Made by a program: the position numbers and the translations under genes | In this document: in pieces, positions 3,250 to 44,400 of the stretch | Layout: every line of letters begins with the position of its first letter | Numbering within the stretch: position 1 is the first letter of the stretch | Notes under the pieces: model-generated | What the model saw: only the letters and a program-made list of their open reading frames with translations | Told to the model about the DNA's origin: nothing | Database searches by the model: none | Source of the DNA: a virus | Lineage: Duplodnaviria; Caudoviricetes | DNA length: 60,648 bases | Virus record (IMG/VR): IMGVR_UViG_3300032266_000396 | Coordinates: 1 to 60,648 of that record | Direction: 5' to 3' (one strand)

Positions 3250-5540
3250 TTTATTAATTGACTTGTTGAACCATCATTAGAATACCTTGCGAAGTTAATA
3301 CTTATTTTTGAATTTTTTTTCTCAGGTGTATATAAGTGCTTTTGATTAGCCATTATAGCTAATCCTGAACTAATGGATGCATCAAATTTATTTCTATCGT
3401 CTATATCAAATTTAGCCCAATCTTCAAGAGTTCTAGTAAAAGGCATAGTACCCATATCTCCGCCATCTCTATAATCTCCTGTAAAATCTATTCCAATGTA
3501 TTTTTCTATATAAGACTCAATTGCCGATGCGTGAGATTGTTTAACATCTTCTGAAGAGTTAGGTATTCCTCCAAGTTCACGCTCTGTTTTTGTTAGTTTA
3601 TTGTATTGTTTATCAGGTCTATTCAAACAGTAATTCCTGTAACCTCTATTTTTAAAATGATAAAGCAAACGAGGTTTATTATTTTCAATTAGAATTGGCA
3701 TACCATAAAACACACAAGCCATAAGAACTTCCTCAAAAAATATCTCGGCAGTTTGTGGTCTAGCAACATACTCTAAAAAAAACTCATTTACAGGAGCCTC
3801 ATCCATATGAAATTTAGTAAGTCCGTGTAAAGCTCCATTAGAACCTCTACCTCCAACTACTGCAGATATATCATAACTATCGCACCCAAATGAGCCAATA
3901 TGTTCATTGCCGGGGTATTTCATTCCATTTTTTAAATGCACATTATTTTGAAGATATTTTGCAGGAGTCCAACTAACTTTAAACCTTCCTCTCGAATCAG
4001 GAGTAAATATAACTTTACTATCGTTCTCTCCATCTCTCCAATGAAAAAAACCTCTAGTTATAAAATGTTCTTTTATAAGGCTATCGTTGTAATCAATCTG
4101 TTGATATATTTTTGTAAGATTAAACAAAGACTGTTTACTCTCATCTCTAAATGCGTGTGATTCAGTTCTTGGAAACTGACGATAGAACTCATTTAAAGCA
4201 TCGGCATCATTTTTAAGAGAGTCAACCTCAGCTTGCCAATAATCTACAGCTCCATTTTTTATCATCATACCATCAACTCCCATAACAGGTTCCTCAGGCT
4301 TATAGAAAACAGGCATACCATATCTATCAATGAATCCCTCCATATTCCATTCCATAGGAATAAACAAAGCATACAATCCGCTTTTTGTTTGACCATTAGC
4401 ATTGCGACTTGCAACCGCTGAATCTTCAAACATATCTTTGTAATTCTGACCTCCTTTAGATAAAGCATTTGAGGTAGAACCCATCATACACTTTCCAATA
4501 ATTTTAGAACCTAATCTAAGACAAGTTTTAGTTACTCGCCAATTCTCTTTAATGTTGTTCGGCTTAGTCCATTTACCTGACTCATCGTGAGCTAAGAATA
4601 ATAACTTTTCTCCATCATAGGAGTTATCTTCTGTGTTTTTCCAATCTATTGATGTATCTAAACCTTCTATTATTTCATTTTCGGTTTCATACATATTTTT
4701 CTTAGTAATCTTAGTTGCAGGAACACGGAAAGCTAATTCTGTTTTTGGCTTGTCCATACCATCCATAATAGGTTTGAAGAAAAACGGAAGCCTGCTATTT
4801 ATCGGAACCACTTTATCAGTGAACATCTTCTTAGCATCAGAACCTGTCTTAGATAAAATTCCAATCCTTGAATCACGAGCAAGAGTACCAACATTTACAC
4901 ATTCTGATGAAGACATAAACGAGAATCCTGAACGCCTAATTTTTAAGTATATCATACCAAAACTTCTTGAGTCAGCTCTACAGGCTTCCCAAAAAATCCA
5001 ATAGATTCTATTTGCTTCACGAAAATCAGGATAGCCAACATCAATACTTGACCATTGAAGATACATATAGTGAGAACCTGTTATATAAGTTGGAGTTCCG
5101 TTATTCATAAACCACACACCATTCTCTCTGCAATCAAATTCATTTTCAATGTAATCAACCCATCTGTTCTTAAAGTCAGATGGCATTTCGTTCCATTGGA
5201 ATATTGATTGTATTCTTGAGAGTTGTTTTGGAAGAGGTTCTCTTTCCCAATACTGTTCAGATTTTGTAGAGTGTCTTTGAAGACACTTTTTTGGAACCGG
5301 AGGCAACGCAATATAAAGACCGGCTATTTTTACAACATCTCCTATCTCTCCTGTTTTAGAAATTATTATAACATCATATTGGTCATTATAGCCATATAGC
5401 CAAGACTTATTGCCATTCTTTTTAGTAATAGAATGGGCAGGTATGTAATCTTTGACTACGGTGTATAAACTATTTAGACCTTCTTTCTGCAAACCCTTGT
5501 TTTGTATCAGTTTTACTTCCTCCTTTTTCAGACATCTCAA
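3246..5540 (-). CDS. terL: Terminase large subunit (true start may be TTG near 5492)
   Basis: KIRRSGFS Walker A-like motif, LAHDESGK Walker B, GSTSN coupling motif, C-terminal nuclease with GCDSYD and ENNK. Confidence 0.9.
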   Translation of the reverse strand: MRCLKKEEVKLIQNKGLQKEGLNSLYTVVKDYIPAHSITKKNGNKSWLYGYNDQYDVIIISKTGEIGDVVKIAGLYIALPPVPKKCLQRHSTKSEQYWEREPLPKQLSRIQSIFQWNEMPSDFKNRWVDYIENEFDCRENGVWFMNNGTPTYITGSHYMYLQWSSIDVGYPDFREANRIYWIFWEACRADSRSFGMIYLKIRRSGFSFMSSSECVNVGTLARDSRIGILSKTGSDAKKMFTDKVVPINSRLPFFFKPIMDGMDKPKTELAFRVPATKITKKNMYETENEIIEGLDTSIDWKNTEDNSYDGEKLLFLAHDESGKWTKPNNIKENWRVTKTCLRLGSKIIGKCMMGSTSNALSKGGQNYKDMFEDSAVASRNANGQTKSGLYALFIPMEWNMEGFIDRYGMPVFYKPEEPVMGVDGMMIKNGAVDYWQAEVDSLKNDADALNEFYRQFPRTESHAFRDESKQSLFNLTKIYQQIDYNDSLIKEHFITRGFFHWRDGENDSKVIFTPDSRGRFKVSWTPAKYLQNNVHLKNGMKYPGNEHIGSFGCDSYDISAVVGGRGSNGALHGLTKFHMDEAPVNEFFLEYVARPQTAEIFFEEVLMACVFYGMPILIENNKPRLLYHFKNRGYRNYCLNRPDKQYNKLTKTERELGGIPNSSEDVKQSHASAIESYIEKYIGIDFTGDYRDGGDMGTMPFTRTLEDWAKFDIDDRNKFDASISSGLAIMANQKHLYTPEKKNSKISINFARYSNDGSTSQLIK
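5271..5286. repeat. 16-bp palindrome GTGTCTTTGAAGACAC inside terminase
   Basis: Exact reverse-orientation copy; encodes CLQRH. Confidence 0.9.
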
Positions 5541-5770: not shown

Positions 5771-6337
5771 TTATCTATAAAACATTACATACACCATTCG
5801 CCCTTCTTTCCAACCTGTGTTGGGATATTTACTATGAAAGTAATTAGAAGGGTACATAAGAGCACGATTGGGTCTATATCCTACTACAGAATGAAGTTCC
5901 CAACTTTCTAAGTTATTTTCTTCCTCTGAACGAAATTTATCTGTTTCTTTATCAGAAATATTTAAAGGCATTTCATATCCAAAATTTTTATGTTTCCAAA
6001 AAGCGGTTCCGTGGAGCCCTTCTTTTGTAGATGGAGATATATATAGCACAAGTGCTCTTTCAGGTCTAATATTACCTGTTTTTGAATCTGCGTGTATTCT
6101 CCAATCAGTATCAAACTCTTCAGTTGATACTCTAAAAAATCCTAATAAACATTCTCTTTGGATTCCATCAATAGCAGATAGCTTTTCTAAAACATATTTA
6201 TCAAAAACTTCGTTGCTATATTGCACCCAAAAATCTTTATCTCCAACTTTTATAGCTTGAAAATCATTTACTAATAATAGTTTGTAAATAGAATCGTAAA
6301 CTCCTTCTTCTAAAAAATCATCTACAATATTTATCAT
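5771..6337 (-). CDS. 2OG-Fe(II) oxygenase-like protein
   Basis: IHAD (HxD), LVLYI, GTAFW, NRALMY and FHS motifs plus a distal Arg. Confidence 0.7.
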   Translation of the reverse strand: MINIVDDFLEEGVYDSIYKLLLVNDFQAIKVGDKDFWVQYSNEVFDKYVLEKLSAIDGIQRECLLGFFRVSTEEFDTDWRIHADSKTGNIRPERALVLYISPSTKEGLHGTAFWKHKNFGYEMPLNISDKETDKFRSEEENNLESWELHSVVGYRPNRALMYPSNYFHSKYPNTGWKEGRMVYVMFYR

Positions 6338-6897
6338 AGCTTCACGGTTATTTGATGGTCATACATACGATATAATTTCTCTCCATCAACAGTAAATTCG
6401 TATTCACTATCGGGAGAGAAACAGATATAATCCCCTTGTTTTATGCCTTGACTTAATAGGTATTCATTTGGATAGACCATCTGCCCCATTAAAGGTTCTT
6501 CTTTTATGAATTTTTTTATGTAATAATCTGTAGCAGAAATTGGTCTAACAAAGCAATACTTATCATAAGCATTCCAAGTGTCGCCTTTTTTATACAAAAA
6601 GAATTGGTCTGTTTCTATAAAGAATAAGTCATCTTTGAAGAAACTCTTGCCGCTTTTTTGACGACCTCTCATATCATTATAATACTTAAAAGCATTATGA
6701 TGTACAAGAAGTATGTCTCCTATCGAGATAGGACCGCTGTAGCCTGCAGGTAGCTCGATAACTTTTGCATATCTATTAGAAAACTTGTGGTCTTCTTCTG
6801 AGGTACTAACTATAAAGTCAGTTCCTCCAATATCTTTTGTATTATCGTAACGCTTTCCATTTACAGGCTTTGCTATAAAGTAGAATGGAGATTTCAT
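6334..6897 (-). CDS. GroES-like protein with two tandem GroES-type repeats
   Basis: C-half (YCFVRP...GIKQGDYICF...EFTVDGEKLYRM) aligns by eye with the GroES at 14901; N-half has SIGDILLVHH. Confidence 0.5.
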   Translation of the reverse strand: MKSPFYFIAKPVNGKRYDNTKDIGGTDFIVSTSEEDHKFSNRYAKVIELPAGYSGPISIGDILLVHHNAFKYYNDMRGRQKSGKSFFKDDLFFIETDQFFLYKKGDTWNAYDKYCFVRPISATDYYIKKFIKEEPLMGQMVYPNEYLLSQGIKQGDYICFSPDSEYEFTVDGEKLYRMYDHQITVKL

Positions 6898-12327: not shown

Positions 12328-12702
12328 TTAAACTTTTGAAACTCTATTTCCCATACCAACTCTTGACTTCTCTGCTTTCTTAGCAGCTAATTTTGAAGGG
12401 GATATTTGTGATATAGTCTTTGGTGTCGAATTTGACACCTTTACTTTTGGTCTGCAGTACTCATTACTTCCTCCTGCTCCACAAGCTTTACCTGTTCTAG
12501 TGTCGGTCCACTTCTCTTTTTCCCACCTTTTTAATGATGTACCTGCCTCAGTCTTCCTTACAACTCCTGAACCCTTACGGCATTTAGCAATCGCTTGAGA
12601 AGCTCTTGCGGATGGAAAGACATCATACTGAGCTTTTACTTTTGTATAACAAGCATCCTTTGGCATCTTATTTCTTTTTAGCAGGTATAACTCCGCTTGC
12701 AT
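12328..12702 (-). CDS. Basic Cys-containing hypothetical protein (true start likely MPKDACY near 12666)
   Basis: DACYTKVK...PSARAS...KCR...LKRWEKEKW...YCRP. Confidence 0.65.
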   Translation of the reverse strand: MQAELYLLKRNKMPKDACYTKVKAQYDVFPSARASQAIAKCRKGSGVVRKTEAGTSLKRWEKEKWTDTRTGKACGAGGSNEYCRPKVKVSNSTPKTISQISPSKLAAKKAEKSRVGMGNRVSKV

Positions 12703-30377: not shown

Positions 30378-30545
30378 GCGTGTCGGAAACACCATTTTCA
30401 ACACTTCTATTACTACTATATGTATTTTCTATTATTATTATTTTTTTTATTTTAGTTTTTTAAGAAAATAATTGACATAAAAGACAGTAGTAATGATTAT
30501 CAAATAGTTAGATATTTAAAAACGACATAAAAACGACAGATAATG
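30378..30545. other. Origin-like region B upstream of the primase-helicase gene
   Basis: gtgtcgg, very AT-rich tract, then ttgacat, aagacag, acgacat, acgacag. Confidence 0.45.
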
Positions 30546-32966
30546 ACACATAACGTAACAATCTTTCAAAACATACGTGATACGGACACTCCGTTCTTCC
30601 GTGATGTACACGTTATCCTTGATAGGATTAAGGATGGAGCAGGAGCTACCAAAGACATTGTTAAACGTATCAGACAAGAGAAGAACAAAGCAGAGAGAAA
30701 CGAAATTAAGAAGCTATTACCCGCTATATGTTTCAGCGGTACTTTCAAGAAGAGATTAGATTCAGCACTCGACCAACACTCAGGACTTATTTGTTTAGAC
30801 TTTGATGGCTACCAAAAACAAAAAGAATTATTACAAGACAAGGAGACCATATCTAAAAACAAATATGTGTTTTCAGTATTTATTTCTCCATCAGGAAATG
30901 GATTAAAAGTATTGGTTAAGATTCCCGCAGATGAGGAGAACCATACAAACTACTTCAATAGCTTAGAAAAACACTTTAACAGCCCTTATTTCGATAAAAC
31001 GAGTAAGAACATCAGTAGAGTGTGTTATGAGTCTTACGACCCCTTAATTCACATTAACGAGAACTCATCAGTTTGGGATTTGATTGAAGAGCCTGAGTAC
31101 ACCGAAGTAAACAGAGTACGAGACCAAGCTACTATTCCAATTTCAGATGAGAATAAGATTGTTGAGATACTTGTTAAGTGGTGGGAAAAGAAATACCCGA
31201 TGCAAGAGGGTCAAAGAAACCACAATGCTTACATCCTTGCGATGGCATTTAATGACTTTGGAGTTAACAAAAGCCTTGCGGGTTATATCTTAAATCAGTT
31301 TGCTACTTCTGACTTCTCAATAAACGAGATAGCAACAACGATTGATTCAGCCTACAGACATACAGCAAACTTCGGAACTAAGTACTATGAAGACGAAGAG
31401 CGTATCAATCAGATTCGTGCCAAGCTAAGAAGAGGCGTATCAAAAAAAGAGATTCGCTACCAACTACAAGATTCCAATTTGGATAGTGAGACTATCGAAG
31501 CAGTCTTAAACAAAGTCGAAGATGAAAATTCTAAGATGACATTTTGGACTAAGAACGATAAAGGAGTCATCAAGATTGAGCATATTTTATTCAAACAATT
31601 CTTAGAGGATTCAGGATTCTATAAATTCTGTCCTGAGGGTAGCAGGAACTATGTGTTTGTAAAGGTTACAAATAACCTCATCGACCATACTTCTGAGAAA
31701 GAGATTAAGGACTTCGTGCTTACTCACTTGTTAGAGTTGGATGATTACAGCGTTTACAATTATTTCGCAGACAATACGAGATTCTTTAGAGATGATTTTC
31801 TTTCAATGATTTCAACCATTGAGATATACTTCATCGCAGACAGCAAAGATTCAGCGTACTTGTATTATAAAAATTGTGCTGTTAAGATTATGAGAGACAG
31901 CATCCTTACCATTGACTATTTGGATTTGGGAGGCTACGTTTGGAAAGACCACGTGATTGATAGAAACTTCAACATTTGTGAGGTTACGGGAGAATGTGAT
32001 TTCAGAAAGTTTATTGGTAATATCAATGGTGGAGATGAGAATAGAATTAAGACTATGGAGAGCACTCTCGGATTCCTTCAGCACGGATATAAGAACTTAT
32101 CTTTTTGCCCCGCTGTGATTCTAAACGATGAGGTTATCAGCGATAACCCTGAGGGAGGAACAGGAAAGGGATTAGTTATGAATGCCCTTAGCAATATGAA
32201 GAAGCTCGTAGTGATTGATGGTAAATCTTTCAACTTTGAAAAATCATTCCCTTATCAGTTAGTGTCAGCAGATACTCAGATACTTTGCTTTGATGATGTT
32301 AAGAAACATTTTGATTTCGAGAGATTATTCAGTGTGATTACAGAGGGTTTGACATTGGAAAAGAAAAACAAAGATGCTATCAAGATTCCTTTCAGCAAGT
32401 CTCCTAAGGTTACAATAACAACCAACTATGCTATCAAGGGAGCAGGTAATTCATTTGCTCGTAGAAAGTGGGAGCTTGAGCTTCATCAGTATTACAATAT
32501 GAATTTCACACCAAGAGATGATTTTGGTAAGATGATGTTCGGAGATTGGAACGATGATGAGTGGTGCGAGTTTGACAACTATATGATTGGATGTTTGAGA
32601 TTCTACCTTGCAAATGGATTAGTTAAATCTAAGTTCGTAAATTTAAAGATACGCCAATTATCAGCAGAAACTTGCCACGAATTTATCGAGTGGTGCGGAT
32701 TGGTTGACAGCAACGATAGAAGCACTGTATTACCTACAAACGTAAGACTTTATAAGAACGAGCTGTACAGCAATTTTGTTGATGAGTACCCTGACTACGG
32801 TGCAAGGGGCAGAATGAGTATCAGCCGAACTAAATTCTACAAATGGTTGGTAGCCTACGCTATTTACAAAGAGGGTATTATGCCTGAGGAAGACAGAGAC
32901 CACATAGGTAGATGGATAATCATAAAGAAGAGAGACGATAACGAAACACAAATTAAATTAAATTAA
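30543..32966 (+). CDS. Primase-helicase (BT4734/VirE-N-like primase, PriCT, SF3-type ATPase)
   Basis: LPAICFSG, SGLICLDFD, FISPSGNGLK, EGQRNHNAY, GGTGKG Walker A, FDDV, ITTN. Confidence 0.85.
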   Translation: MTHNVTIFQNIRDTDTPFFRDVHVILDRIKDGAGATKDIVKRIRQEKNKAERNEIKKLLPAICFSGTFKKRLDSALDQHSGLICLDFDGYQKQKELLQDKETISKNKYVFSVFISPSGNGLKVLVKIPADEENHTNYFNSLEKHFNSPYFDKTSKNISRVCYESYDPLIHINENSSVWDLIEEPEYTEVNRVRDQATIPISDENKIVEILVKWWEKKYPMQEGQRNHNAYILAMAFNDFGVNKSLAGYILNQFATSDFSINEIATTIDSAYRHTANFGTKYYEDEERINQIRAKLRRGVSKKEIRYQLQDSNLDSETIEAVLNKVEDENSKMTFWTKNDKGVIKIEHILFKQFLEDSGFYKFCPEGSRNYVFVKVTNNLIDHTSEKEIKDFVLTHLLELDDYSVYNYFADNTRFFRDDFLSMISTIEIYFIADSKDSAYLYYKNCAVKIMRDSILTIDYLDLGGYVWKDHVIDRNFNICEVTGECDFRKFIGNINGGDENRIKTMESTLGFLQHGYKNLSFCPAVILNDEVISDNPEGGTGKGLVMNALSNMKKLVVIDGKSFNFEKSFPYQLVSADTQILCFDDVKKHFDFERLFSVITEGLTLEKKNKDAIKIPFSKSPKVTITTNYAIKGAGNSFARRKWELELHQYYNMNFTPRDDFGKMMFGDWNDDEWCEFDNYMIGCLRFYLANGLVKSKFVNLKIRQLSAETCHEFIEWCGLVDSNDRSTVLPTNVRLYKNELYSNFVDEYPDYGARGRMSISRTKFYKWLVAYAIYKEGIMPEEDRDHIGRWIIIKKRDDNETQIKLN

Positions 32967-32968
32967 TA

Positions 32969-33157
32969 ATGAGAATAAAAATAGAGTGTGAGATAGAAGT
33001 GGATGAGAATATATGGGGAAGCCACGCTGATAAAGAAGAACACGAGTGGTTTAAGTCTATATTAGAAGATAAAGAAGACACTATGTTAATCCTTTGGAGC
33101 AATGAAGTGGGAGATGAAATAGGTCAAACATCTAATTTTAAATACGAGATACTATGA
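32969..33157 (+). CDS. Hypothetical protein
   Basis: ORF track. Confidence 0.5.
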   Translation: MRIKIECEIEVDENIWGSHADKEEHEWFKSILEDKEDTMLILWSNEVGDEIGQTSNFKYEIL

Positions 33158-33338
33158 AAAGAACAACATTTAACGTATTGCTAATAGCAATTTATTTTGC
33201 ATTAATAACATTAATATTAATATACACGCTATGACGATTAGACAATACATTCAATCAAAAATTCCTGATATACCATATAAGGATATACCTAAAGATTTAA
33301 AAAAATTTTGGAAAGAACAATATAAAAAGAAATAAGTT

Positions 33339-33596
33339 ATGGACTTTAGAACAGAATTAGCAAAGTGGGGTTATAACAAAGGTAACTCAATTGATGTTGA
33401 GATTTTGATTGATGAAATACTACCAAGTTTATTTTCTCAACAAGAAAGAAGTTATAGTGAGGAAGAAGTATTAGCTATATTAGTTAAAGCAATAAGAGAA
33501 GTAAAGACAAAAAGACTTACATTTTTTGATGGAGGTTCAGAATATCCAATATACAGTAACTTGAGTAAATGGTTTGAACAATTTAAAAAGAAATAA
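33339..33596 (+). CDS. Hypothetical protein, QQERSY/WFEQFK family
   Basis: QQERSYSEEE...WFEQFKKK. Confidence 0.6.
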   Translation: MDFRTELAKWGYNKGNSIDVEILIDEILPSLFSQQERSYSEEEVLAILVKAIREVKTKRLTFFDGGSEYPIYSNLSKWFEQFKKK

Positions 33597-33597
33597 G

Positions 33598-33834
33598 ATG
33601 AAAAAAGTATTAGTATTATTAGCAATTGTAATGGTTAGTTGTTCTACACCATCTGAACAAAGTGAAACATCAGTAGATTGTAAATGTGGTGTTGTAATTG
33701 ATTCACAAAGTTTTAATGTATTGGGAGCAAATTTTTTCTCAGTAATTAAAGTTAAAAACAATTGCACAGGAGAAATAAAACAATTTCAAAAAGATGGTAT
33801 AATAACCATTGGAACTCAATTATGTAATTATTAA
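33598..33834 (+). CDS. Lipoprotein
   Basis: MKKVLVLLAIVMVSC signal with lipobox; CKCG...NNCTG...C. Confidence 0.7.
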   Translation: MKKVLVLLAIVMVSCSTPSEQSETSVDCKCGVVIDSQSFNVLGANFFSVIKVKNNCTGEIKQFQKDGIITIGTQLCNY

Positions 33835-33846
33835 AAATTTAATAGG

Positions 33847-34062
33847 ATGAAAAAACAAACAAGAGTACAGTCAGCACTTGAAAGCATAGCGCAAACAATG
33901 GTAGGACTTGCAATAAGTTTTGGAATACAAGTTATTCTTTATCCACTTCTTAAAATTCCTGTAACATTTGAGCAAAACATTTTGATTACATCAGTGTTTT
34001 TTTGTGCCTCACTAATAAGACAATATTTTATAAGAAGATTTTTTAATAAATGTAAGAAATGA
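33847..34062 (+). CDS. Small two-TM membrane protein
   Basis: QSALESIAQTMVG...SLIRQYFIRRFFN. Confidence 0.7.
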   Translation: MKKQTRVQSALESIAQTMVGLAISFGIQVILYPLLKIPVTFEQNILITSVFFCASLIRQYFIRRFFNKCKK

Positions 34063-34394
34063 AGAACACGCAAATGACTCACATAGGAATGTTAAATTCA
34101 TTCAACGTGATAACAGAAAAGGTATCTGTAGATGATGTTATCAGGTCAGGTATAGGGGTGTTCGCACACATACCTGACGAAGAACCTTCTATAGAAGTTA
34201 TTGATTTTATGATATTCTACTTCAAAGAAATGGAGATGTATGATAAGTGCGCAGCTCTAAAGAAATACATTGAATGTAATTACAATGAAGATGGTAAACC
34301 AAAAGAAGAAAGGTGCAAGTGCGAGTACCCCGACATAATAGAATACGTTCCTAAAATAAAATGTGCTGTATGCAATCTGAGAATCAAACGATAG
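34059..34394 (+). CDS. Hypothetical protein with Cys-rich C-terminus
   Basis: EMEMYDKCAALK; CKC...CAVC. Confidence 0.6.
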   Translation: MKNTQMTHIGMLNSFNVITEKVSVDDVIRSGIGVFAHIPDEEPSIEVIDFMIFYFKEMEMYDKCAALKKYIECNYNEDGKPKEERCKCEYPDIIEYVPKIKCAVCNLRIKR

Positions 34395-35851
34395 ACATAC
34401 TTGAAAGAAACCCCGGGTTCAGTAACAAAGAGATGTGGAAACAATGCGAGTTACTACGAAGCGTTATCTTTCAAACCGTAGAGACTAAGGTTGGAAGAGG
34501 TAAAAATGTTAGAGTTGTTCAAAATTTCAAGCACGATACACCTAAAGAAGTTAGAGAACGAATAGCTAATAGCTGTGAGTATTATAAACAATTACACCTA
34601 AAAGATATGGAAAGAAATAATCAAATTAAATTTAGAGATTATCAGTTCGACATCATAAGGAAAGGTACAGAGATACTAAACAAAAGTGGATTTGTTTACC
34701 TCGCTATGGAAGTTCGTACAGGTAAGACATTAACGAGCCTTGGAATAGCAGAAAGAATTAATAGCAGTAATGTATTATTTTTAACAAAAAAGAAAGCTGT
34801 GTCAAGTATTCAGAAGGATTACGAGCTACTCAACCCTCCGTATCATTTAACAGTTACCAACTACGAGAGTTTACATAAAATAGAAAATACCGATTGGGAT
34901 TTAATCATTTGTGATGAAGCTCACTCGATGGGTGCGTTTGCTAAGCCGAGCAAGAGGGCGGTTCAGGTAAAAGACTTGATAGCTATTACAAAAGCAAAGG
35001 TCATATTGCTATCGGGAACACCAACTCCTGAATCGTATTCTCAGATGTACCATCAGGTTTATGGAATACCAAATAACCCTTTCAAAGAGTATAAGAATTT
35101 TTATAAATTTTGTAGTAAATTTGTAGTTGTTAAGACCAAAATAATCAATGGTTTATCAATGAATGACTATTCTAACGGGATGTACACTATCCTTGAAGAA
35201 ATGGAACCTTTTATGATAAACTACACTCAAGCAGAGGCAGGCTTCATAGCCGAGACTATTGAAGAAGTATTTGAAGTCGAGCTAAAAGAATCAACCTATA
35301 AGTTGATTAAGAAGCTAAGCAGAGATTTAATTGTACAAGGAAAGGAAGAGGTTATCTTAGGAGATACTCCCGTAAAGTTGATGAGTAAAATACATCAGTT
35401 ATACTCAGGAACCGTAAAGTTTGAAAGCGGAAATTCTATGGTAATAGATACCACTAAAGCAGAGTTCATAAAAGAGCAATGGATGGGATGCCAAATTGGA
35501 ATCTTTTATAAGTTCAAAGAAGAGCTTGAGGCTTTGAAGCAAGTGTTCGGAGATGAGCTTACAACAGAGCTTAGTGTCTTTGAAGACACTTACAAGAACA
35601 TAGCATTGCAGATTGTATCAGGGCGTGAGGGTATATCGTTAAAGAAAGCAGAGTATCTCGTGTATTACAATATTGATTTTAGTGCTACGAGTTATTGGCA
35701 ATCAAAGGATAGAATGACCACCAAGGACAGACCAAAGAACGAAGTGTTTTGGATTTTCGCCAAGGGAGGTATTGAAGAACAGATTTATAAAGCAGTAACA
35801 AAAAAAAAAGACTATACATTAGCACACTTTAAAAAAGATTTTTACTTATGA
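34361..35851 (+). CDS. SF2 (SNF2-like) helicase
   Basis: FRDYQ, EVRTGKT, ICDEAH, LSGTPTPE, GREGISL, QSKDRM; start uncertain. Confidence 0.88.
   Translation: MCCMQSENQTIDILERNPGFSNKEMWKQCELLRSVIFQTVETKVGRGKNVRVVQNFKHDTPKEVRERIANSCEYYKQLHLKDMERNNQIKFRDYQFDIIRKGTEILNKSGFVYLAMEVRTGKTLTSLGIAERINSSNVLFLTKKKAVSSIQKDYELLNPPYHLTVTNYESLHKIENTDWDLIICDEAHSMGAFAKPSKRAVQVKDLIAITKAKVILLSGTPTPESYSQMYHQVYGIPNNPFKEYKNFYKFCSKFVVVKTKIINGLSMNDYSNGMYTILEEMEPFMINYTQAEAGFIAETIEEVFEVELKESTYKLIKKLSRDLIVQGKEEVILGDTPVKLMSKIHQLYSGTVKFESGNSMVIDTTKAEFIKEQWMGCQIGIFYKFKEELEALKQVFGDELTTELSVFEDTYKNIALQIVSGREGISLKKAEYLVYYNIDFSATSYWQSKDRMTTKDRPKNEVFWIFAKGGIEEQIYKAVTKKKDYTLAHFKKDFYL
35574..35589. repeat. 16-bp palindrome GTGTCTTTGAAGACAC inside the helicase gene
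   Basis: Exact reverse copy; encodes SVFEDT. Confidence 0.9.
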
Positions 35852-36072
35852 CACTAAAAGAAAAGTTTAGAAAATTAAATTTATCAACGTGGATAAATGA
35901 AAATGATACAGAAAAAATAGAACAAATAGCTGATGAATTTGCTATTGGATTTGGATGTTGGTTACATCAAAATCTTACTCATATTTCAAAAGATAGTTGG
36001 GGAGTTTATAATGGTGAGTGGTTAACAGTAAATGAAAGTTTAGAAATCTATAAAAAAGAAAAAGGATTATGA
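35848..36072 (+). CDS. Hypothetical protein, ADEFAI family
   Basis: IADEFAIGFGCW...LEIYKKEKGL. Confidence 0.6.
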   Translation: MTLKEKFRKLNLSTWINENDTEKIEQIADEFAIGFGCWLHQNLTHISKDSWGVYNGEWLTVNESLEIYKKEKGL

Positions 36073-36299
36073 CAGAAAATAAATTGATTAATAAATATTT
36101 AGATATAATAAAAAAACCTTTTAAAGATAAAGGATTTTATTATGACCTTAATACTGCAGAAGAATGTTCAGAAGTCGCAGATGAATTTGCTATTGACTTT
36201 CATCAATGGATGAGAGTAAATGATACCAAAGAAAACGCAGATAAATACTTCCACTTTACGGATAAGGATATGTTGAACGAATTTAAAAAATCATTATGA
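36069..36299 (+). CDS. Hypothetical protein, ADEFAI family
   Basis: VADEFAIDFHQW...LNEFKKSL. Confidence 0.6.
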   Translation: MTENKLINKYLDIIKKPFKDKGFYYDLNTAEECSEVADEFAIDFHQWMRVNDTKENADKYFHFTDKDMLNEFKKSL

Positions 36300-36539
36300 A
36301 AAAAATATATTTAAACAAGAAAGAGTTTCGATACAATAAAATCATTGACAAACTATTTTGGGTAGCAGTTTTTGCTATATTGTACGGTTGCTTATTATTA
36401 ATTTTAAACTAAACAATTATGAATTGGGATTATCCACCTGAAGAAAAAGAGTGTACTTGTAGATATTGCGGAGAGGACTCAGAAAAAGAATTTTGTAACA
36501 GAGAGTGTGCCAAAGCATACGAAGCAGATAATTAAAGAT

Positions 36540-36827
36540 ATGGCAAGTAAAAGAAACAAGATGGCGGGAGAGCATCCATCATACGATAAACTAAATATGT
36601 CTCCTGAAAGAAGAGCTAAAAAGTTAGCTTACGATAAAAAGTATGAGGCTTCTCCCAAGAGGGTAAACTATCGAGAAGACCTCAACCAAGCAAACCGAAA
36701 AGCGAAGACTTACGGAAATGGAGATAACTTAGATATGAGCCATACTAAAGCAGGAAGTATGGTTCCTGAGAATCTAAAGTCTAACAGAGCAAGAAATGGT
36801 CATAACGGTAAATCAACTAAGAAATGA
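36540..36827 (+). CDS. Basic protein with HNH-like motif
   Basis: GDNLDMSH...ENLKSNRARNG; ATG at 36540. Confidence 0.55.
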   Translation: MASKRNKMAGEHPSYDKLNMSPERRAKKLAYDKKYEASPKRVNYREDLNQANRKAKTYGNGDNLDMSHTKAGSMVPENLKSNRARNGHNGKSTKK

Positions 36828-37156
36828 TAAAGTGTTTATGTATTGATGACAGAAACAAACCAACACAAATCCCACAAGAAAAGTGGATAGAAGTTGGTAA
36901 AGAATACACTATTCTTTTTAGTATGACTGTGCTTCCTCAGAAACAATTGGCTTTTCAATTATATGAAATTGACCTTGATGATAGTTGTTCTCCATACACG
37001 TGGTTCCTCGCAAACAGGTTTTCTTTCAGAAGGGAAGACCTTGAGGAGTTAATAGCTTTTATCCAAGAATGCAATCGAATCAACTTTACAATAAATGAGT
37101 TGAAAAAAACTATAAACATAGATGAAAGAGAGCCAAATACAATCGAAAAAGATTAA
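36824..37156 (+). CDS. Hypothetical protein
   Basis: CLCIDDRNKP...WIEVGKEY...FLANRF. Confidence 0.65.
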   Translation: MIKCLCIDDRNKPTQIPQEKWIEVGKEYTILFSMTVLPQKQLAFQLYEIDLDDSCSPYTWFLANRFSFRREDLEELIAFIQECNRINFTINELKKTINIDEREPNTIEKD

Positions 37157-37364
37157 GGAACTCGAGGCTCAGGGGTATTACGTTTTAAAGTTGATTAAAA
37201 CTAACAAGAATGGTATTCCTGACCTTATAGCTATTCCTCCTAATTCAGATGTTGAGTTCTTTGAGGTTAAAGCCCCAAATGGGAAATTATCTCCCCTACA
37301 AGAGTGGAGGATAAAAGAACTAACTGAGCACGGAGTAAAAGCAGAGGTATATAAACCACTATAA
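37122..37364 (+). CDS. VRR-NUC domain nuclease
   Basis: ESQIQ, GIPDLI, FFEVK, GKLSPLQ. Confidence 0.85.
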   Translation: MKESQIQSKKIKELEAQGYYVLKLIKTNKNGIPDLIAIPPNSDVEFFEVKAPNGKLSPLQEWRIKELTEHGVKAEVYKPL

Positions 37365-37374
37365 ATTAAATCAA

Positions 37375-37851
37375 ATGCAATCAAGACAAGAAGGAATAAA
37401 AGAACTCAAGAAAATAGTAAATGATATTTTTTTAGTTGACATAGATTCTAAGAATAGTAAAAGGGGAGTAGTTGATGCTCGTAAAGTTTATTCTAAAATT
37501 TTAAGGGATAGTGGGTATAGCTATAAATTAATAGGCGAGACGATAGATAAAAATCACGCAACTATAATTCACTATATAAAAAACATAGAGTATCTATTAT
37601 CTTATGACCAAAATTTAAAAAAAAAGTATGTTGCTTGTAAAAATGTTTTTATTAAAGACCAAGATAAAAAAGATGTAGATATATATGTAACTGTGATAAG
37701 ACTGTCAAACGAACTTAAAGAAGCTATAGCTTTTAAAGAAAAACTTTTAGATGAGTTTTTGGATTATATTCAAGACTACGAAAAAAGAACAGGGCGTTTA
37801 CCAAATTCTTATGAATGCAAACATCATATACTACAATTGTTTAACAATTAA
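37375..37851 (+). CDS. DnaA C-terminal-like HTH protein (second copy)
   Basis: SKRGVVDARKVY...SYKLIGETIDKNHATIIHY. Confidence 0.7.
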   Translation: MQSRQEGIKELKKIVNDIFLVDIDSKNSKRGVVDARKVYSKILRDSGYSYKLIGETIDKNHATIIHYIKNIEYLLSYDQNLKKKYVACKNVFIKDQDKKDVDIYVTVIRLSNELKEAIAFKEKLLDEFLDYIQDYEKRTGRLPNSYECKHHILQLFNN

Positions 37852-37860
37852 TAGTAATGT

Positions 37861-38055
37861 ATGAACCAAGAGAAGGATAGCGAAGACGAAAGAGCTTCCC
37901 GGATTGCGTATCGAACAAACGAATACCATTCGCTATTAGATAGTATCTATGAAGGCTTGGTTGACCGTGATTTTAAATTAGTTAGAAAAGAAGCACAGTT
38001 TCTAATTATGGAATTAAGGTGCATACTAAAATCAACAGAAGAAGATGACTTTTGA
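37861..38055 (+). CDS. Hypothetical protein
   Basis: ORF track. Confidence 0.55.
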   Translation: MNQEKDSEDERASRIAYRTNEYHSLLDSIYEGLVDRDFKLVRKEAQFLIMELRCILKSTEEDDF

Positions 38056-38458
38056 AACAGAGCAAGACTTAAAAAGAGAGCAGAAAGCTATAGAGACATT
38101 CGTAAATACTTTTGGAGGTTCATTTCAAAAACTTGACCCATACGACATTGACTACAAAGTGTTTGATAAAAGCGGTAAATTAATTGCCTACGCTGAGGTA
38201 AAAGGCAGAATAAAAACTATGTACAACGCATATCCTTTACTTATAGCTGCAAGAAAAATTGTTAAGCTAACAGATAAAAGACTTAATCCTGTATTAATAT
38301 GGGCTTGCGAAGATGGTATAATTTACGGTAAGGTTGATAAATTAAAAGGAGAAATCAAGTGGGGTGGAAGACCCCAACGTGATAACTCCTTTAATGATGA
38401 TGAGCTTATGGTTTATTACGATAAACAAAAAGCTCTAAAGTATGTTAGGTTTGTTTAA
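38045..38458 (+). CDS. PD-(D/E)XK nuclease-like protein
   Basis: YDIDY...YAEVKGR. Confidence 0.55.
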   Translation: MTFETEQDLKREQKAIETFVNTFGGSFQKLDPYDIDYKVFDKSGKLIAYAEVKGRIKTMYNAYPLLIAARKIVKLTDKRLNPVLIWACEDGIIYGKVDKLKGEIKWGGRPQRDNSFNDDELMVYYDKQKALKYVRFV

Positions 38459-41400
38459 TTATTGACCAAACTTCTTACTCCCAAAACTACTCTTTGATGA
38501 TTTACTTTCTCCAAGTCCTTTATCTCCAAATTCTTTTGAGCCAAATCCTTTTTTATCTTTTGGAACGTAATTATTCATATCATCCTTAGCATCTCTTTCC
38601 TTGGCTTTTTCTATAGCTTTAGCTTCTTTTTCGTCAATATGATTTTCATACCAATCCGATTTTTCTCCAAAAGTTTCTTCGTAAAGTTTAGGGTCGTATC
38701 GTTTCATATCTTCTCTATTCTCATACCCTTGAAGTAGCTCCTTGCCTAATTCTCTATCTTCCTTGGCTAATTTCTCATCTCTTGATGTTTGTTTCTTCTT
38801 AGCCATTTTTATAGAACCTCTTATAGCACCTGCTATTTCAGGAGGGAATACACCAATATTGGTCAAGAAAGCAGGACCTAATAAAACACCTAATGCTTTT
38901 CTATCTCTTTCAGATATTTCGTGTTCTTTGTTGAAATCATCTTTGTATTTTCCTGTAGCCCATAATTTTACCATTCCAAACAATTGCATAGCTCTATCAG
39001 GAGCTATACCATACATCCCAAGAAATTTTACAAACTCCTCAGGTTTTGTTGAGTATAAAGACAGTCTATCTTCCTCATCCATATCTAAAGCATCTTGAAC
39101 TCCTGCTAAGAAATTTGCAGCTCCTGTTTGAACAATTTTATCAAGAATAGGTAATGGAGAAAAAACATCCGTAACTACAGATGTAGCTTGACCTTTTAAT
39201 ACTCCATCTCTTCTTTTCTTTTCTTCATCATCAGTCTCTCCTTTGCCCATCATAGATGCAGCAGCATATCCTGTTAGTATAGCAATACCGGCAGACATAG
39301 CTCTAAAAGTAGCCATCTCCGCTGCATAACCCGCCAAAGACCTTGCGGCAACAATTTTGTCCTCTTTAGTTGAAACATTCCAATATCCTAATGTTGAAAG
39401 GTCAGCACCTAATCTTGACGATTGGTTCATTCTGAAACTTGCAAAAGCCATAAATATCTTAGTAAGCACTTGCTTACCTGTTTCTTTAGAAGAAAATAAA
39501 CTTCCTGCTAAATCGTGGTCAGATACGTTTTGCTGTCTATCTACCATCCTTTGAGCATAGTTTGCCGCTGTCTCATTTAGTGGATGGTCAGAGTAATCAA
39601 TATTCTTATAGTCTTTACCTTGTTGTTTCAAAGACTTCTCATAGTAAGCCTTGAAGGAAGCTCTTGCTACAGCAACATCGGGTCTAACCAAGAATGTTTT
39701 TAACCATTTTCTATTTGCTTCTTCAATAAGCTCCATCGCTCTTTTTGCGTTTGAGTTTGCTGCTTCTTCAATTAATTTATTAATTGATTCAACTTCTGCT
39801 TGAGACTCTATACCTCTATTAGCAATGGCATATCCTGACTGTGAAATCCAATTATTAAAATCAGAATTGAAAGATGCTGTTAAGCTAAAAGTTCCTGCAT
39901 TTACCCACGTATTTACAGCTACCGGAACAAACTGTTTGAAAACTTGAGTCGGTCCTCCTAATGCTTGTCCAACACCAAGAGTTGCTATTTTATTCAGTTT
40001 TCTAACTGCCTTAGAAAGCTCGTCATTTGAATATGGATTCTTGTTTCTTGTGTTGGCAACATATAATTGAACTCTATTAGTAAGTAGCTTTGCATCCTCA
40101 GGATTTGGAACTATTTTACTAAAATTCTCAGAATTTAAAAACGCCTGAACCTGTCTTATTGGAGCTGCTGTCTCAATATCCACAAGTGCATCATACATAG
40201 AGTTAGAGTTGTTTCTATCAAATGATAAATCAATATAACTCAATACGTTTTTATTTCCATTCATAGGAAGCGTGTTTGTTCCTGTTGTGTCCATCAAAAC
40301 GCCTGTTTTTTTGTTGTACAACACACCATTGGTATTATTGATAAATGCAGAATCGCTATTAGTCAAGTCAACATCTTGAGGAGCACTCTCTAATCTAACA
40401 TACTTATCAGGAGAATAATTCAAGTCTCTATCTAAGTTTTTGTTGTAAACATTAAGAGCTACATCCGCTAATCTGTCAAATTGATTATCCCATTGTTTAT
40501 GCCAAAAGTAAATAGCCTCTAAATTTTTAGGGTCAGTATTGTCTTTTATTCCCTGAATATCATTTGCATCTGCGATTACTTTGTCATATACCTTTTGGTA
40601 CAATTCTGCTTTCTTTTGCTCTTGTTCGTTACCTTTTCTTAAAGCTGCAATAGATTGGTCTATTAAACCTTTTCTTCTTCCAAACTCTATTTGCATTTCT
40701 TGCTCAGTTCCAATAACATTTCTAATCATAAACGCAGCCATACCTCTTTCAGTATTATTTTCTGCTGTATTAAACTTCTGCCCATTTGGTCTTACATCTT
40801 TATTGTAAAACTGTTTAACGTAGTCGTTAATGATATTATTTGACTGAGTTTGTGCGTATGCCTTTCTGTTAATCAATTTTGTCAATCCCATTAAGTCCTG
40901 AACCACACCACCACGGTTAAACCCCTTGAACATTTTTTCAAAAAGAATATTTAAGTTGGTAGTTTGCTCCCCAAAAGTTCTACCAAGTTGTTTGAAGAAG
41001 AACTTTCTTAATGCGATAGCTTTGATTCCTTTTCTTAAAACAATTTTTGTGTTATTATTTCCTTCGTATATAGAAGTAACAGCATCCATAGAAGCTGTTG
41101 ATTTATTCTCTATGAAGTTGGCAAGTGCATCAACTGCGGCAAGAGCATTTTTAGTAGTCATATTTTTAGGGTCCATAGCCATAAATTTAGAGATGATTTC
41201 TTTTTCTCTTTTAGTATATTCTACTTCTTCTCCCGTAAACGCATCTACTCCGGTATCTATACTGTTCTGTATCATTGCAGAATAAATCTCAAATGCTGTG
41301 TTGATGGTATCTCTTACTATACCCTCGTTTTTATCTGTCATTGGTTTATCTTCCTCTAACAGAGCCATCATCTCAGCCTCAGTAAAAGTAGAAGCATCTA

Positions 41401-44400
41401 CACCCATTAAACTTTGTATGTCAGCTATTCTTTCATCACGAATTATATTTGCTTGAGATTTCTCTTCTACATTGATATACTCAGTGGCATCTTGAATATT
41501 TACTGTGTTTGCAAACCTAACTTTCTGACCGCTTATTTTAGAGCCATCTACAGCCTCTTTTATTTTAGCTGCCATATCATTATAAACTTCGATATTTTTT
41601 GCAAGAGAGGGGTCTAATTTTCCAAATTTAGCGGCTAAATCACGTAGGTTAGCATCTTTAGTTTTATCACGAGACAAACTTCTTATTTTCTTTCTTAATT
41701 TTTGAGCATCAGTTAACCTTTGAGCGTAGTCGGCATTATTGTACACCTTGGTTACATAGTCAATAAGTCTTCTTGTAGATTTTTCACTAAGAACATTTGT
41801 GTTTCCTAATCTATTTAAAATAGCTTGCTCTTGAATTTTGTTTATTTTACCTAACTTTCTTAAATCTCTTATCTCTTTTATTAATGTCTGAGTAGCTTCT
41901 TTTACAGCTTTTACAGCATATTTACCACCTCTAATTTGGTCTTTGAACTGTTTATTAAGTGCAACTCTTTCAGTCATTATTACTTTTCTGATGTCTCTTA
42001 ATCTTCCAAGTATTCTTGCTACTGATGGAGCAGACTTTTCTTTGATACCAAACTGTTTACGCAATTGACGAACTAACGCCTCTCTCTGAACATCTGTAGC
42101 ATTCTCATAAACTTTAGAGTCTTGTTGAAGATAATCAAGAGCTGCTTGAAATGCTCTTTCATTTGTTCCTCCTCTTTCTTTAAGTACCTTTTGAGTTATA
42201 CCATCAACTATACTCATCATTCGGTCATATCCCGGGAGTTCAACTTCAGATAATCCTTGTGTACCTAATTCTTCAGATGTAGTTTCTTCTACTTTTGTGG
42301 TTGGTTCTTCAGATGTAGTTTCTTCTACTTTTGTGGTTGGTTCTTGGAACGCTTCAAGAACATTACTTCTATCGTATTGTCTTGTTTGGTCTTCGGTTCC
42401 TTCGTTGATTGCTCCTTGGTAAGAAGATTTTTTGATAATAACATTGTGTCCATCCAACGCATTACTTCCGAGTGTTTGCCCGATTGCATTTGCGGTTGCA
42501 CTTGATTTTGATTGGAAGTCTTTAAGTTTTTCATTGTATTGCTCATCTTTAGTTAGATTATTATTTTCAGGTAAAAAGGTAATTACTGATACTTCAACTT
42601 GATTATTATTGATGCTAAATGCATCAACTCCCTCATTTTCTAACGATACAGATAAGTCTGCTACTTGTTCGTCAGTTATTGGTTCAGCAAAGGTATAAAT
42701 AATTTTTGGATAATGCATTAAATCATTATCATAAAATTCAGTAAGAGGCATATCTACGTTACCATTAATCCATTCATCGTGTAATTCAGATTCAGTTTCT
42801 AATATAAATGCATCTTGAGAGTATTTTTCAGAAAAATCATAAAGCATATCACTAACCTTTTGAGTATCTGCATCAGGGCTAATAGACAAGTTCATATTAA
42901 AAGATGGCTCAAATTTACCATCCCATAATCCACGATTGGTATCTTTAAATGTAACTTCTACTCCTTTTATGTCTGCTACTGCATCAATAATCTCTTGTTT
43001 TGCTACATCAGTTATTTGTGATTCAGTTTTCTTTATTTGTTCAAGAACTTTTGGGTTTTTGTCTTTTGAAAATTGCTTTACTAATTTGTCATATTTTAAT
43101 GATAATGCCTTAATTTTTTTAGTAATTGGATTAAACCCACGCACTGTAGCAGGAGTTATAAGAACAGACACATCTTTAACAGATGTAGTTTTTGGTGCTT
43201 CAACATTTACTGTTTCTGTTGGTTGTCCATTTTCTTTTATTTTTTGAGCTTGTTTTAAATTTTTTCTAAGTTCTATCTTTAAAGAATTAGCTTCCTCATT
43301 TGTTATTTCGTTATCTCTAACTAAAACAGTTATTTCTTTATTTTTATCTCTAAACTGTTTAATCATAGTATTATAATCATCTACAACATCAATAGATGTG
43401 TTTGGGTCAGAACCAATAGTTTGAGTTGTTGGTTGTGTCTTTGAAGACACTATTTCATCTAATTTAGCTTCTGCTTCTTCTCTTGTAGCATAAGATGGTG
43501 CAATTCCTCGTTCATCTGTTCCTTCTTCGTAAAGATTAGTTTTATCATTAAAAATTTTAAATCCATCTTCACTTTCTACTATTGTTAAGTCTTCTTGCGG
43601 TTTCGCATTAGTGATAGTTTCTTCGGTAATTGCTTGAGGTTGGGTGTTTCCTTCGACCACTCCTTGCAATCCCACCCCGGCTTCTTTTGTGCGTAGCACG
43701 CTTTCATTTGTTGTTGGCTCTTGAATGGCATCTTCTTCTTCGTTTAAAAGGTTACTTAATTCGTCTTCTGTTAATTGAGAGTTTGTTTTTTCTTTTATAA
43801 TCTCTTGTATTTTTACTCCTGTTTCTTGGTCGTTTTTTACGCCAAGAGCTGAACGCAAAAGTCTTCTTGCTGTCATACCCTCAGTCTTCTCAATAAATTG
43901 TTCCTTGGTATATCTTACACCATCAATCATATATTCAGCAACTCCTTTCTTAGTAGTTCCTAAAGTTTTACTAAGGTCAACTGAAGATTCTTCAGGAGCC
44001 AATTCTTTTGTATCAGCAATAACTGCTAACTCTTGATTTATCTCTTTTATCTTATCTGAATAGATTTCTCTCCTGTTAGTTGAGGAGGTAAGCTCTTCTT
44101 TGGCAGACATCAATTCCATAGTCCTTACCAATACAGCAGGCTTAATTTTGTTTTTGTTTTCTCCTACAGATAAAGCCTCTCTTGCATCTCTTTTTAATCC
44201 TACGTTCTCTTGTATTCTTTGATTGGTATCAGCATCAATTTTACCAAGTTGGTGCATATTGTTAGCCCAAGATGATATTCTTGAATCAGAAGCAGATTCT
44301 GTACCTACAAAGCTAGCATCGGTAAGTTTGTTTGCTATTTCTAAATTAGAATTATTTTTAATACCCCTGTAGGTATTGATAGCCATATTAGAACTATTAT

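Follow-up and report, generated by a model that had tools for sequence, protein, structure and literature searches.

The complete phage genome IMGVR_UViG_3300032266_000396 (Duplodnaviria, Caudoviricetes; 60,648 bp with direct terminal repeats), which was analyzed over its whole length and is referred to here as the window, carries a dispersed 16-bp near-palindrome, GTGTCTTCAAAGACAC. The reading that we favor, with moderate confidence and from comparison of DNA sequences, is that this 16-mer is a dyad site bound on double-stranded DNA by a symmetric dimer encoded by the phage, with the protein of the first early gene, which starts at position 18463 (referred to below as 18463), as the likeliest candidate. 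The copies have arms of fixed sequence and fixed spacing, their arms change symmetrically between related phages, they are kept at the same places inside conserved genes, and they are found together with homologs of 18463.

Eleven exact copies of the 16-mer were identified in the window (Table 1), together with a copy at 18190 that differs at one position, has a TA center, and is a perfect palindrome (GTGTCTTTAAAGACAC) and a copy at 29863 with three mismatches (GTGTTTTAAAAAACAC). The original prediction, made from this DNA alone, had listed the same 12 dispersed copies and the degenerate one at 29863, and all of them were recovered; it had also seen none by eye beyond 43.5 kb, and a search allowing up to three mismatches likewise finds no copy past position 43450 in the window. 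When the motif was counted against a background, the exact 16-mer did not occur in any of 100 dinucleotide-preserving shuffles, and the search at three or fewer mismatches returned 25 rows, representing 13 places, against 0.64 matches expected. The description of the element as a 16-bp palindrome holds for its 7-bp inverted arms but not for its center, as the arms flank an asymmetric CA; the element is thus an imperfect palindrome, and every copy has an orientation. A search for the arms only (GTGTC-N6-GACAC) gave 13 matches in the window, against 0.01 expected, and added a site at 12423 to 12438 (GTGTCGAATTTGACAC) that was missing from the earlier list of copies. GTGTC and GACAC arms were found only at a spacer of 6; spacers of 0 to 5 and 7 to 12 gave no match in the window, nor did arms in direct, everted, or reversed arrangement. 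By place, the 13 window sites comprise seven in intergenic stretches of the early operon, one in the divergent control region, and five within genes. The CA center is on the + (sense) strand in all seven intergenic copies (19105, 20384, 20964, 21663, 22670, 23844, and 29841), while inside genes the copies at 5271 and 43435 are sense and those at 16592 and 35574 are antisense. The motif string, searched in three spellings, was not found in the literature searched, nor was any paper on this element.

Table 1. Copies of the 16-bp motif, hammerhead ribozymes, promoter-like sequences, and genes in the window
Feature	Position	Strand	Remarks
Portal gene	817-3249	-	Family scan
Large terminase (TerL) gene	3249-5540	-	Family scan
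Motif in TerL gene	5271-5286	-	Exact; sense; codons read x-C-L-Q-R-H
GroES-like gene	6337-6897		Family scan
Motif arms in DUF5872 gene (12331-12702, -)	12423-12438	-	Arms kept, inner six bases diverged
GroEL gene	15652-17265	-	Family scan
Motif in GroEL gene	16592-16607	+	Exact; antisense to gene
Motif in divergent control region	18190-18205	.	Center TA; 160 bp upstream of P1 -33 box
Promoter-like P1, TTG-N20-TAnnTTTG	18350-18380	+	Ahead of first early gene; sequence and regex match
First early gene (18463)	18463-19098	+	212 aa, no known family; candidate motif binder
Small early genes, then Sak annealing protein, exonuclease, primase-helicase, SNF2-type helicase	18463-38455	+	
Bare motif, junction of first and second early genes	19105-19120	+	Exact; 3 nt past stop; 18 nt to ATG at 19139
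Type III hammerhead	20084-20138	+	Rfam RF00008, 46.1 bits; preceded by unrelated hairpin GGGGCGG GAAA CCGCCCC
Motif, flank-extended stem	20384-20399	+	Exact; directly before hammerhead
Type III hammerhead	20401-20450 (limits by eye)	+	Partial match 20416-20452, 19.6 bits; core CUGAUGA..GAAAC
Promoter-like P2, TTG-N20-TAnnTTTG	20902-20932	+	Read from sequence
Bare motif after P2	20964-20979	+	Exact; 31 nt past -7 box; 15 nt to ATG at 20995
Motif, top of 10-bp hairpin	21663-21678	+	Exact; directly before hammerhead
Type III hammerhead	21681-21735	+	RF00008, 41.8 bits
Promoter-like P3, TTG-N20-TAnnTTTG	22610-22640	+	Read from sequence
Bare motif after P3	22670-22685	+	Exact; 29 nt past -7 box; 22 nt to ATG at 22708
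Motif, top of extended hairpin	23844-23859	+	Exact; directly before hammerhead
Type III hammerhead	23863-23911 (limits by eye)	+	Core read and fold; not among Rfam matches listed
Bare motif over stop codon of gene 29560-29841	29841-29856	+	Exact
Second hairpin	29863-29878	+	GTGTTTTAAAAAACAC; arm pair C5/G12 replaced by T5/A12, both sides changed
Motif in SNF2-type helicase gene (34361-35848, +)	35574-35589	-	Exact; antisense
2831-aa protein gene	38462-46954	-	
Motif in 2831-aa gene	43435-43450	-	Exact; sense; codons read V-S-S-K-T
crAss-type muzzle protein homologs (two)	50014-50826 and 51213-55886		Family scans
Capsid-type structural gene	58713-60155		Family scan

Related phages differ in the motif that they carry, and the differences are symmetric. 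In two complete relatives, G001 and G005, not one copy was found at up to two mismatches, and three others (G002, G003, and G004) have 9, 7, and 3 exact copies, respectively, as well as near copies, with CA, TA, and CG centers. In G006, 12 of 12 sites are of the form GTCTC-N6-GAGAC, and the four sites of L399 are all of the same type. The perfect palindrome GTGTCGTTAACGACAC occurs 12 times within 7 kb of GenBank record MW202828.1, where seven copies lie 4 to 11 nt past a stop codon and 17 to 40 nt (17 to 24 nt for six of them) before the next annotated start, and L309 has GTGCACTCGRGTGCAC four times at intervals of 0.7 to 1 kb (up-side positions 1248, 1969, 2694, and 3661). At their inner positions, the two half-sites vary independently of each other, with combinations such as CTCAAA (found nine times) and TTCAAG, and L286, L352, and L414 keep the arms but have inner six bases that differ between copies, with no compensating changes. 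Of 238 non-redundant sites, 229 have a pyrimidine at position 8 and 228 have a purine at position 9. Arms that are fixed within a genome and change symmetrically between lineages, around inner positions that vary independently, are what a symmetric dimer on double-stranded DNA predicts, and this is not the behavior of a stem kept only for its pairing. The original prediction of a site for a dimeric protein, in a multi-site layout resembling stoperators, fits the fixed 6-bp spacing and these concerted symmetric changes, from which we infer the binding itself.

The exact 16-mer was present in at least 162 stretches of a viral contig collection. A search in relatives had been named as a check of the original prediction, and it showed that the motif not only recurs but is kept at the same places in many of them, both at junctions between early genes and within the genes for TerL, GroEL, the helicase, and DUF5872. 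The embedded motif is read in different frames and on both strands, giving CLQRH in TerL and VSSKT in the DUF5872 and giant proteins and lying antisense in the GroEL and helicase genes. As the same 16 bases are read in different frames and antisense across these genes, selection at the embedded sites is, on the alignments examined, acting on the nucleotides. A TerL sample chosen independently of the motif comprised 80 loci, of which 69 could be anchored, a few of them probably at the wrong YWE site; at the corresponding place, 25 of these had the exact motif, 6 had one mismatch, and 2 had two mismatches, and the remaining loci encode C-x-[QK]-R-[HSD] with unrelated codons. Both of the two-mismatch copies have a base pair changed on its two sides; in GTGCCTTCAAAGGCAC both changes are synonymous, and in GTCTCTTCAAAGAGAC they alter two residues. 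In the 36-nt flanks, identity among the 23 distinct TerL sequences that carry an exact copy is 62% and 67%, and each flanking third codon position has between 1 and 4 different bases (in most cases 3 or 4), a contrast that is illustrative and not a formal test, as the sequences were picked for the exact motif. The orthologous place in the DUF5872 gene of relatives carries the exact motif, read as V-S-S-K-T, and the window site at 12423 is the same site with its inner bases decayed. The helicase-embedded motif was found at the same place in diverged relatives, and the copy at 43435 in the giant gene has an ortholog in L143, which has a second copy approximately 50 residues upstream. The GroEL-embedded site was present in 8 of 22 loci with a homolog of 18463 versus none of 27 loci without one.

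Conservation of this kind bears on the idea that no specific protein is involved and that the copies are structural hairpins (insulators or terminators) or boundaries of shuffled cassettes, as in the PeSL units of other phages, homogenized by recombination. We regard this as quite unlikely. Early-region gene content does differ between relatives, copies do lie at cassette junctions, one ribozyme has an unrelated hairpin in place of the motif, and the phage has genes for an annealing protein (Sak) and an exonuclease. However, recombination without flanking homology cannot write sites into the codons of TerL, GroEL, DUF5872, and helicase genes in different frames, and a merely structural stem should vary from copy to copy, whereas in G006 it is common to 12 of 12 copies. 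The TerL site of L249 also has the GTCTC-type arms of its lineage, and has them at the price of two residue changes.

Gene co-occurrence was compared among six complete genomes. The only gene present in all three other motif-bearing genomes and in neither motif-free genome was 18463. The original prediction had named three kinds of candidate binder, and of these only the first early protein tracks the motif across relatives; the winged helix-turn-helix protein 14486 and the DnaA-C-like protein 27808 are present in the motif-free G001 and G005 as well, and the DnaA-C-like 37375 is present in G001 only. A GroEL-anchored sample of 80 loci included 44 with at least 3 kb of the early side. Homologs of 18463 were found in 18 of the 44, of which 15 hold GTGTCTTYRAAGACAC and 3 hold variants at the same junctions, and 25 of the 26 loci without the gene were also without a motif copy. 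When 61 loci were anchored on the homolog instead, the commonest inverted arm class was GTGTC in 55 and GTCTC in 2, with 1 tie and 3 loci having none. Variant motifs pair with diverged homologs, which share 32% identity with 18463 in the G006/L338 lineage and 29% in MW202828.1, and the first early open reading frame (ORF) of L309 matched the family profile at an E value of 1.8e-7, with a full-length hhalign probability of 80.5%. After a conserved G-W, the two GTCTC lineages have N or E, whereas most GTGTC lineages have Q and a few have G or K. A residue-to-base rule, in which Q after G-W goes with G at position 3 of the site and N or E goes with C, is possible from these alignments, and it is backed by at most two events because a quick tree does not resolve the two GTCTC lineages.

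The 18463 family has 602 members in a large protein collection, none with a name or a Pfam domain. The predicted structure of 18463 (mean predicted local distance difference test score [pLDDT], 84.5) has a helical domain (residues 1 to 134), a disordered acidic linker (residues 137 to 158), and a small strand-strand-helix C-terminal domain, and the conserved residues of the family are lysine rich, with many in the N-terminal domain. Foldseek returned nothing from the PDB at an E value of 0.001 or below and, among viral models, only four unnamed members of the same family. A DUF3102-like identity was suggested by ESM Atlas clusters (0.90 to 0.91) and was rejected, as Pfam did not confirm it. 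In a wide fold search, Spo0J (Z score, 4.6), KorB (4.1), and TetR-type proteins (approximately 4.2) appeared among many unrelated helical proteins, in the noise range. The presence of the first two could be taken to favor parS- or matS-like sites, with which the original prediction had compared the motif, i.e., centromere or genome-organizing sites for a ParB-like protein that would act in segregation, compaction, or packaging. A 16-bp dyad in dispersed copies, some of them inside genes, would suit such a role. The comparison found no support, and we consider a role of this type very unlikely: beyond the noise-level fold scores, no ParA gene and no ParB N-terminal domain were detected among the 59 ORFs scanned, no 18463 homolog was found in those species genomes of bacteria and archaea that were scanned, and the density of sites is highest at early junctions and at fixed distances from promoters. 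The scans of the 59 ORFs against Pfam and PHROG also identified no integrase, lysogeny, plasmid-maintenance, or repressor-family gene.

The two gene sets of the window diverge between 17266 and 18462, and the motif copy at 18190 lies in this control region. Three promoter-like sequences, P1 to P3, precede the first early gene and two later early genes; their form, TTG-N20-TAnnTTTG, is one that we take to be the Bacteroidota sigma-A consensus and thus a host-type promoter. From this consensus we infer that the host is probably a member of the Bacteroidota. Only 2 of the 13 copies in the window (20964 and 22670) adjoin a promoter, 29 to 31 nt downstream of its -7 box, and of 14 sites that are preceded by a full promoter, 10 lie 26 to 31 nt past the -7 box. 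The control-region site was examined in 41 non-redundant loci and in most of them is found 205 to 285 nt upstream of the start of the 18463 homolog. Its center is CA in 16, TG in 12, TA in 11, and CG in 2, i.e., with no preferred orientation; a full promoter stands between site and gene in 19 of the 41, and no promoter reading through the site was found in these loci. As no promoter reading through the site was found and its center has no preferred orientation, its position upstream of P1 argues, from sequence, for action on DNA.

The same promoters bear on whether the motif could serve a host transcription factor or be a set of N4-type hairpin promoters for a virion RNA polymerase. Arms of 5 bp around a 6-bp spacer resemble many bacterial dimer sites, a 2,831-amino-acid virion-type gene is present, and, in the available part of a study on the crAss-like phage phi14:2, the early promoters of the virion polymerase were still unknown and no common motif was reported upstream of the early transcripts (bioRxiv 10.1101/2020.03.07.982082). 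Both possibilities are nonetheless highly improbable. Close relatives, presumably with similar hosts, have no motif or have other palindromes, and host-type promoters stand ahead of the early genes, with the motif downstream of two and far upstream of the third. The giant protein matched nothing in Pfam or PHROG and no DFDxD motif could be seen in its translated sequence, no fold search having been made for it; with no polymerase motif or family found and host-type promoters seen, a virion polymerase promoter was set aside. Transcription starting downstream of the motif would also cut into the ribozymes described below, as the ribozyme stem begins 1 to 5 nt past the motif.

The original prediction overlooked the RNA side of the element, including hammerheads directly after the copies at 20384, 21663, and 23844. 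Four type III hammerheads were identified in early intergenic stretches. The RF00008 scores that were obtained (46.1, 41.8, and 19.6 bits) are all under the gathering threshold of 48.5 bits; the CUGANGA...GAAA core could be read and stems I and II fold in all four, and only for 21656 to 21738 does the minimum-energy fold contain the complete three-way junction, with stem III closed, after a 10-bp hairpin. Three of the motif copies have a hammerhead within a few bases downstream, and the fourth hammerhead is without the motif. The flanks lengthen the palindrome at the three ribozyme junctions (e.g., GGGGA...UCUC), while bare copies form a hairpin of 6 bp only, at -6.8 to -7.1 kcal/mol. The last hammerhead contains a 47-nt stretch that is 91.5% identical to mostly unannotated DNA in 65 records of PaP4/PaP3-like Pseudomonas phages. 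Each of the four hammerheads ends 16 to 19 nt before the next start codon. Hammerhead-like cores were also noted in motif-free relatives, at early-side coordinates 2110 and 2683 in L331 and 1470 in L292; these three matches, obtained with a crude ribozyme pattern, have stem III closed, stem I open, and no preceding hairpin.

To examine pairing beyond the motif, 259 non-redundant copies from the phage group were compared with a control of mixed flanks. Forty-eight copies precede a hammerhead pattern and have a mean of 3.58 extra flanking pairs, versus 0.95 in the control. A further 28 have at least three extra pairs and a T run, making them terminator-like, a class that is defined by the pairing. 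The other 183 copies have no stem extension (mean, 0.67 extra pairs). After the capsid gene, relatives have the motif atop a terminator where the window has an ordinary hairpin. Orientation differs by setting in relatives, as ribozyme-linked copies are strongly oriented (57 with CA and 5 with TG) and bare operon copies less so (CA, 45; TG, 20; TA, 18); the copy at the 19105-type junction is reversed in L293 and L329.

These observations are the case for a different reading, in which the motif is a transcribed RNA hairpin bound by an RNA-binding protein, possibly 18463 itself, that marks or protects the processed ends of early messages alongside the hammerheads and terminators. Its ability to fold alone and as a 10-bp stem before ribozymes, the flank pairing of the ribozyme-linked and terminator-like copies, the sense bias of the former, the replacement of the ordinary capsid-gene hairpin by the motif in relatives, and the positions of the MW202828.1 sites shortly after stop codons and mostly 17 to 24 nt (one, 40 nt) before an ATG would all be accounted for. 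We nevertheless consider it unlikely that this is what the motif is for. Most copies (183 of 259) have no flank pairing, the CTCAAA sites and the copies in L286 and L414 have broken inner pairs, and the site ahead of P1 seems not to be transcribed and is randomly oriented. It is also the arm sequence, not the loop, that is conserved and symmetrically changed, which is the usual pattern of a DNA site for a dimer. We read the motif as a DNA recognition site that may have been reused at some junctions as ready-made hairpin material, and the 18463 protein may have an RNA-binding role as well.

Under the favored reading of a DNA site for a phage-encoded dimer, 18463 protein would be made first, from the host-type promoter P1, and would then fill the approximately 13 genomic sites soon after infection, each site consisting of two abutting half-sites of the form GTGTCTTY. 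The sites occupied would be the one approximately 160 bp upstream of P1, those at nearly every early-operon junction, and the few in late and replication codons, with the sites after P2 and P3 falling at about +20 to +40. Sites after P2 and P3, at early junctions, and upstream of the gene's own promoter suggest autoregulation and a stop to early transcription, and the most likely effect would be control of early transcription by autoregulation together with a stoperator-like block of elongating polymerase. Speculatively, the sites in the late and replication genes could be weak, or genome replication could titrate them out. At some of the junctions a second use, at the level of RNA, is proposed, in which the flanks would pair into a longer hairpin placed a few bases before a hammerhead or, in relatives, would form an intrinsic terminator behind the capsid gene. 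Ribozyme cleavage of the early transcript would fall 8 to 10 nt past the hairpin, leaving a hairpin at the 3' end of the upstream RNA fragment and a folded ribozyme at the start of the downstream message.

A number of observations weigh against a DNA site read by the 18463 protein. On the side of the motif, the sites inside late genes fit poorly with a plain roadblock, which would block late transcription, and a symmetric DNA site would not by itself readily account for the strand bias of the intergenic copies (CA on the sense strand in seven of seven). The strong orientation of ribozyme-linked copies in relatives has the same bearing, and about 3 in 10 non-redundant copies (76 of 259) have flank-extended pairing, a signature at the RNA level. 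On the side of the protein, the co-occurrence counts were taken from related genomes and are not independent events; L331 has one motif copy without the gene, and L411 has a partial homolog, but the 5 kb that follow it contain no site. Two enzyme genes, the second early gene (19139) and one with a GGACT domain (22708), have nearly the same pattern of occurrence as 18463, with weak homologs in G001 (23% and 28% identity), and the quick tree leaves a separate origin of the two GTCTC lineages unsettled. No Pfam match was obtained over 29 members of the family at E values of up to 10, and none was found in PHROGs; a PDB sequence profile search gave no solved relative; and the best match of the wide fold search, the C-terminal DNA-binding domain of CHD1 (Z score, 6.4), is below the level that the tool treats as meaningful for helical proteins.

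Several known systems resemble this one in part. KorB of plasmid RK2 is a dimeric helix-turn-helix protein with about a dozen dispersed palindromic operators (OB), some near promoters, some far upstream, and some inside genes. In contrast with KorB and OB or ParB and parS, no ParB-type domain or ParA partner was found here, the fold resemblance amounts to Z scores of 4.1 to 4.6, and the element belongs to a phage and not a plasmid. The C1 repressor of P1, a temperate phage-plasmid, has many operators scattered over the phage genome, which are asymmetric 17-mers; the proposed use of a single regulator with scattered operators is similar, but the sequences are unrelated. Each PeSL element of the T4-type phages joins a stem-loop to a promoter and flanks small early genes within a variable region. 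Unlike them, the copies here rarely adjoin a promoter (2 of 13) and then lie downstream of it, five copies are inside genes, and the copies change in concert with a protein.

Another near comparison is with the stoperators of Cluster A mycobacteriophages, in which repressor and stoperator specificities reportedly co-evolve between lineages. These temperate phages are reported to have many asymmetric sites at which a monomeric repressor stops elongation (PMC9283540), and a report on how immunity evolved in the cluster uses the term stoperator 75 times (PMC6550527). As with stoperators of the L5 gp71 type, a short site is repeated many times, for the most part between genes, with some copies remote from promoters. 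Unlike the asymmetric 13- to 14-bp stoperators bound by a monomer, the motif is a dyad with inverted arms of 5 to 7 bp at fixed spacing. It also differs in that some copies are embedded in codons and others lie in ribozyme-linked RNA hairpins, in that no integrase or repressor family was found in the ORFs scanned, and in that 18463 has no detectable relation to known repressors. Stoperators have a single orientation; here all seven intergenic copies are sense, and in relatives the bare copies are of mixed orientation and the control-region site is random.

The ribozymes also have precedent, as hammerhead arrays between prophage and phage genes have been proposed to cut long RNAs into gene-length messages, and phage PaP3 has an intergenic hammerhead (Perreault et al. 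2011, PMC3088659). The window likewise has several hammerheads between genes; the available part of that paper does not mention a fixed partner hairpin formed by a palindrome repeated across the genome. None of the systems compared (stoperators, KorB, P1 C1, and PeSL) fits as the family to which the element belongs.

Other features were noted in the early region and elsewhere in the window. Directly left of the copy at 18190, four tandem G+C-rich units of 23 nt (TACAGCGACCAATACAGCCCCGC type) occupy 18093 to 18173 in a genome of 35% G+C, and these could be iterons or sites of another regulator. Between that copy and P1, an 18-nt direct repeat, TGCGAAGCCCnnnAAACA, is present at 18216 to 18233 and 18291 to 18308, and a similar string was seen by eye ahead of P2, near 20848. 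A second short repeat, TGTCGA (AATGTCGATTTTA in L286 and L352), was found in the window at 17380 to 17600, 20905 to 20925, and 22613 to 22632, i.e., within the control region and inside P2 and P3, between their -33 and -7 boxes. In L277, L291, and L336, which are without the window motif, a near-palindrome, (T)TTACAAATGTAA(A), occurs three to four times at early junctions, and their first early ORF, of approximately 120 amino acids, is not detectably related to 18463. Rfam gave a tRNA match at 24586 to 24687 (39.1 bits; gathering score, 29), with a 45-nt insert replacing the region of the anticodon arm, although ARAGORN identified no tRNA in the window. The phage carries its own GroES-like and GroEL chaperonin genes, and GroEL identity was 72 to 87% across the five complete relatives compared. 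The 2,831-amino-acid protein has long low-complexity linkers, and its gene holds one motif copy.

Gene control in crAss-related and other uncultured phages is almost unknown. A defined cis element together with a candidate gene and natural specificity variants makes a direct test of binding possible. The window and its relatives present regulatory sites that appear to be kept inside conserved coding genes through the choice of codons, and one palindrome that is common to a putative DNA site and a ribozyme-linked RNA hairpin. In its widest form, which we put forward as doubtful, the proposal is that an unnamed family of early proteins reads a 16-bp dyad with a specificity that has been retuned several times (at least four site types with four protein subtypes), that its sites extend into the codons of essential genes, and that the same 16-mer serves as a ribozyme or terminator hairpin, so that it would punctuate both DNA and RNA. 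If the residue-to-base rule is true, the family could be used as a set of orthogonal operator-regulator pairs.

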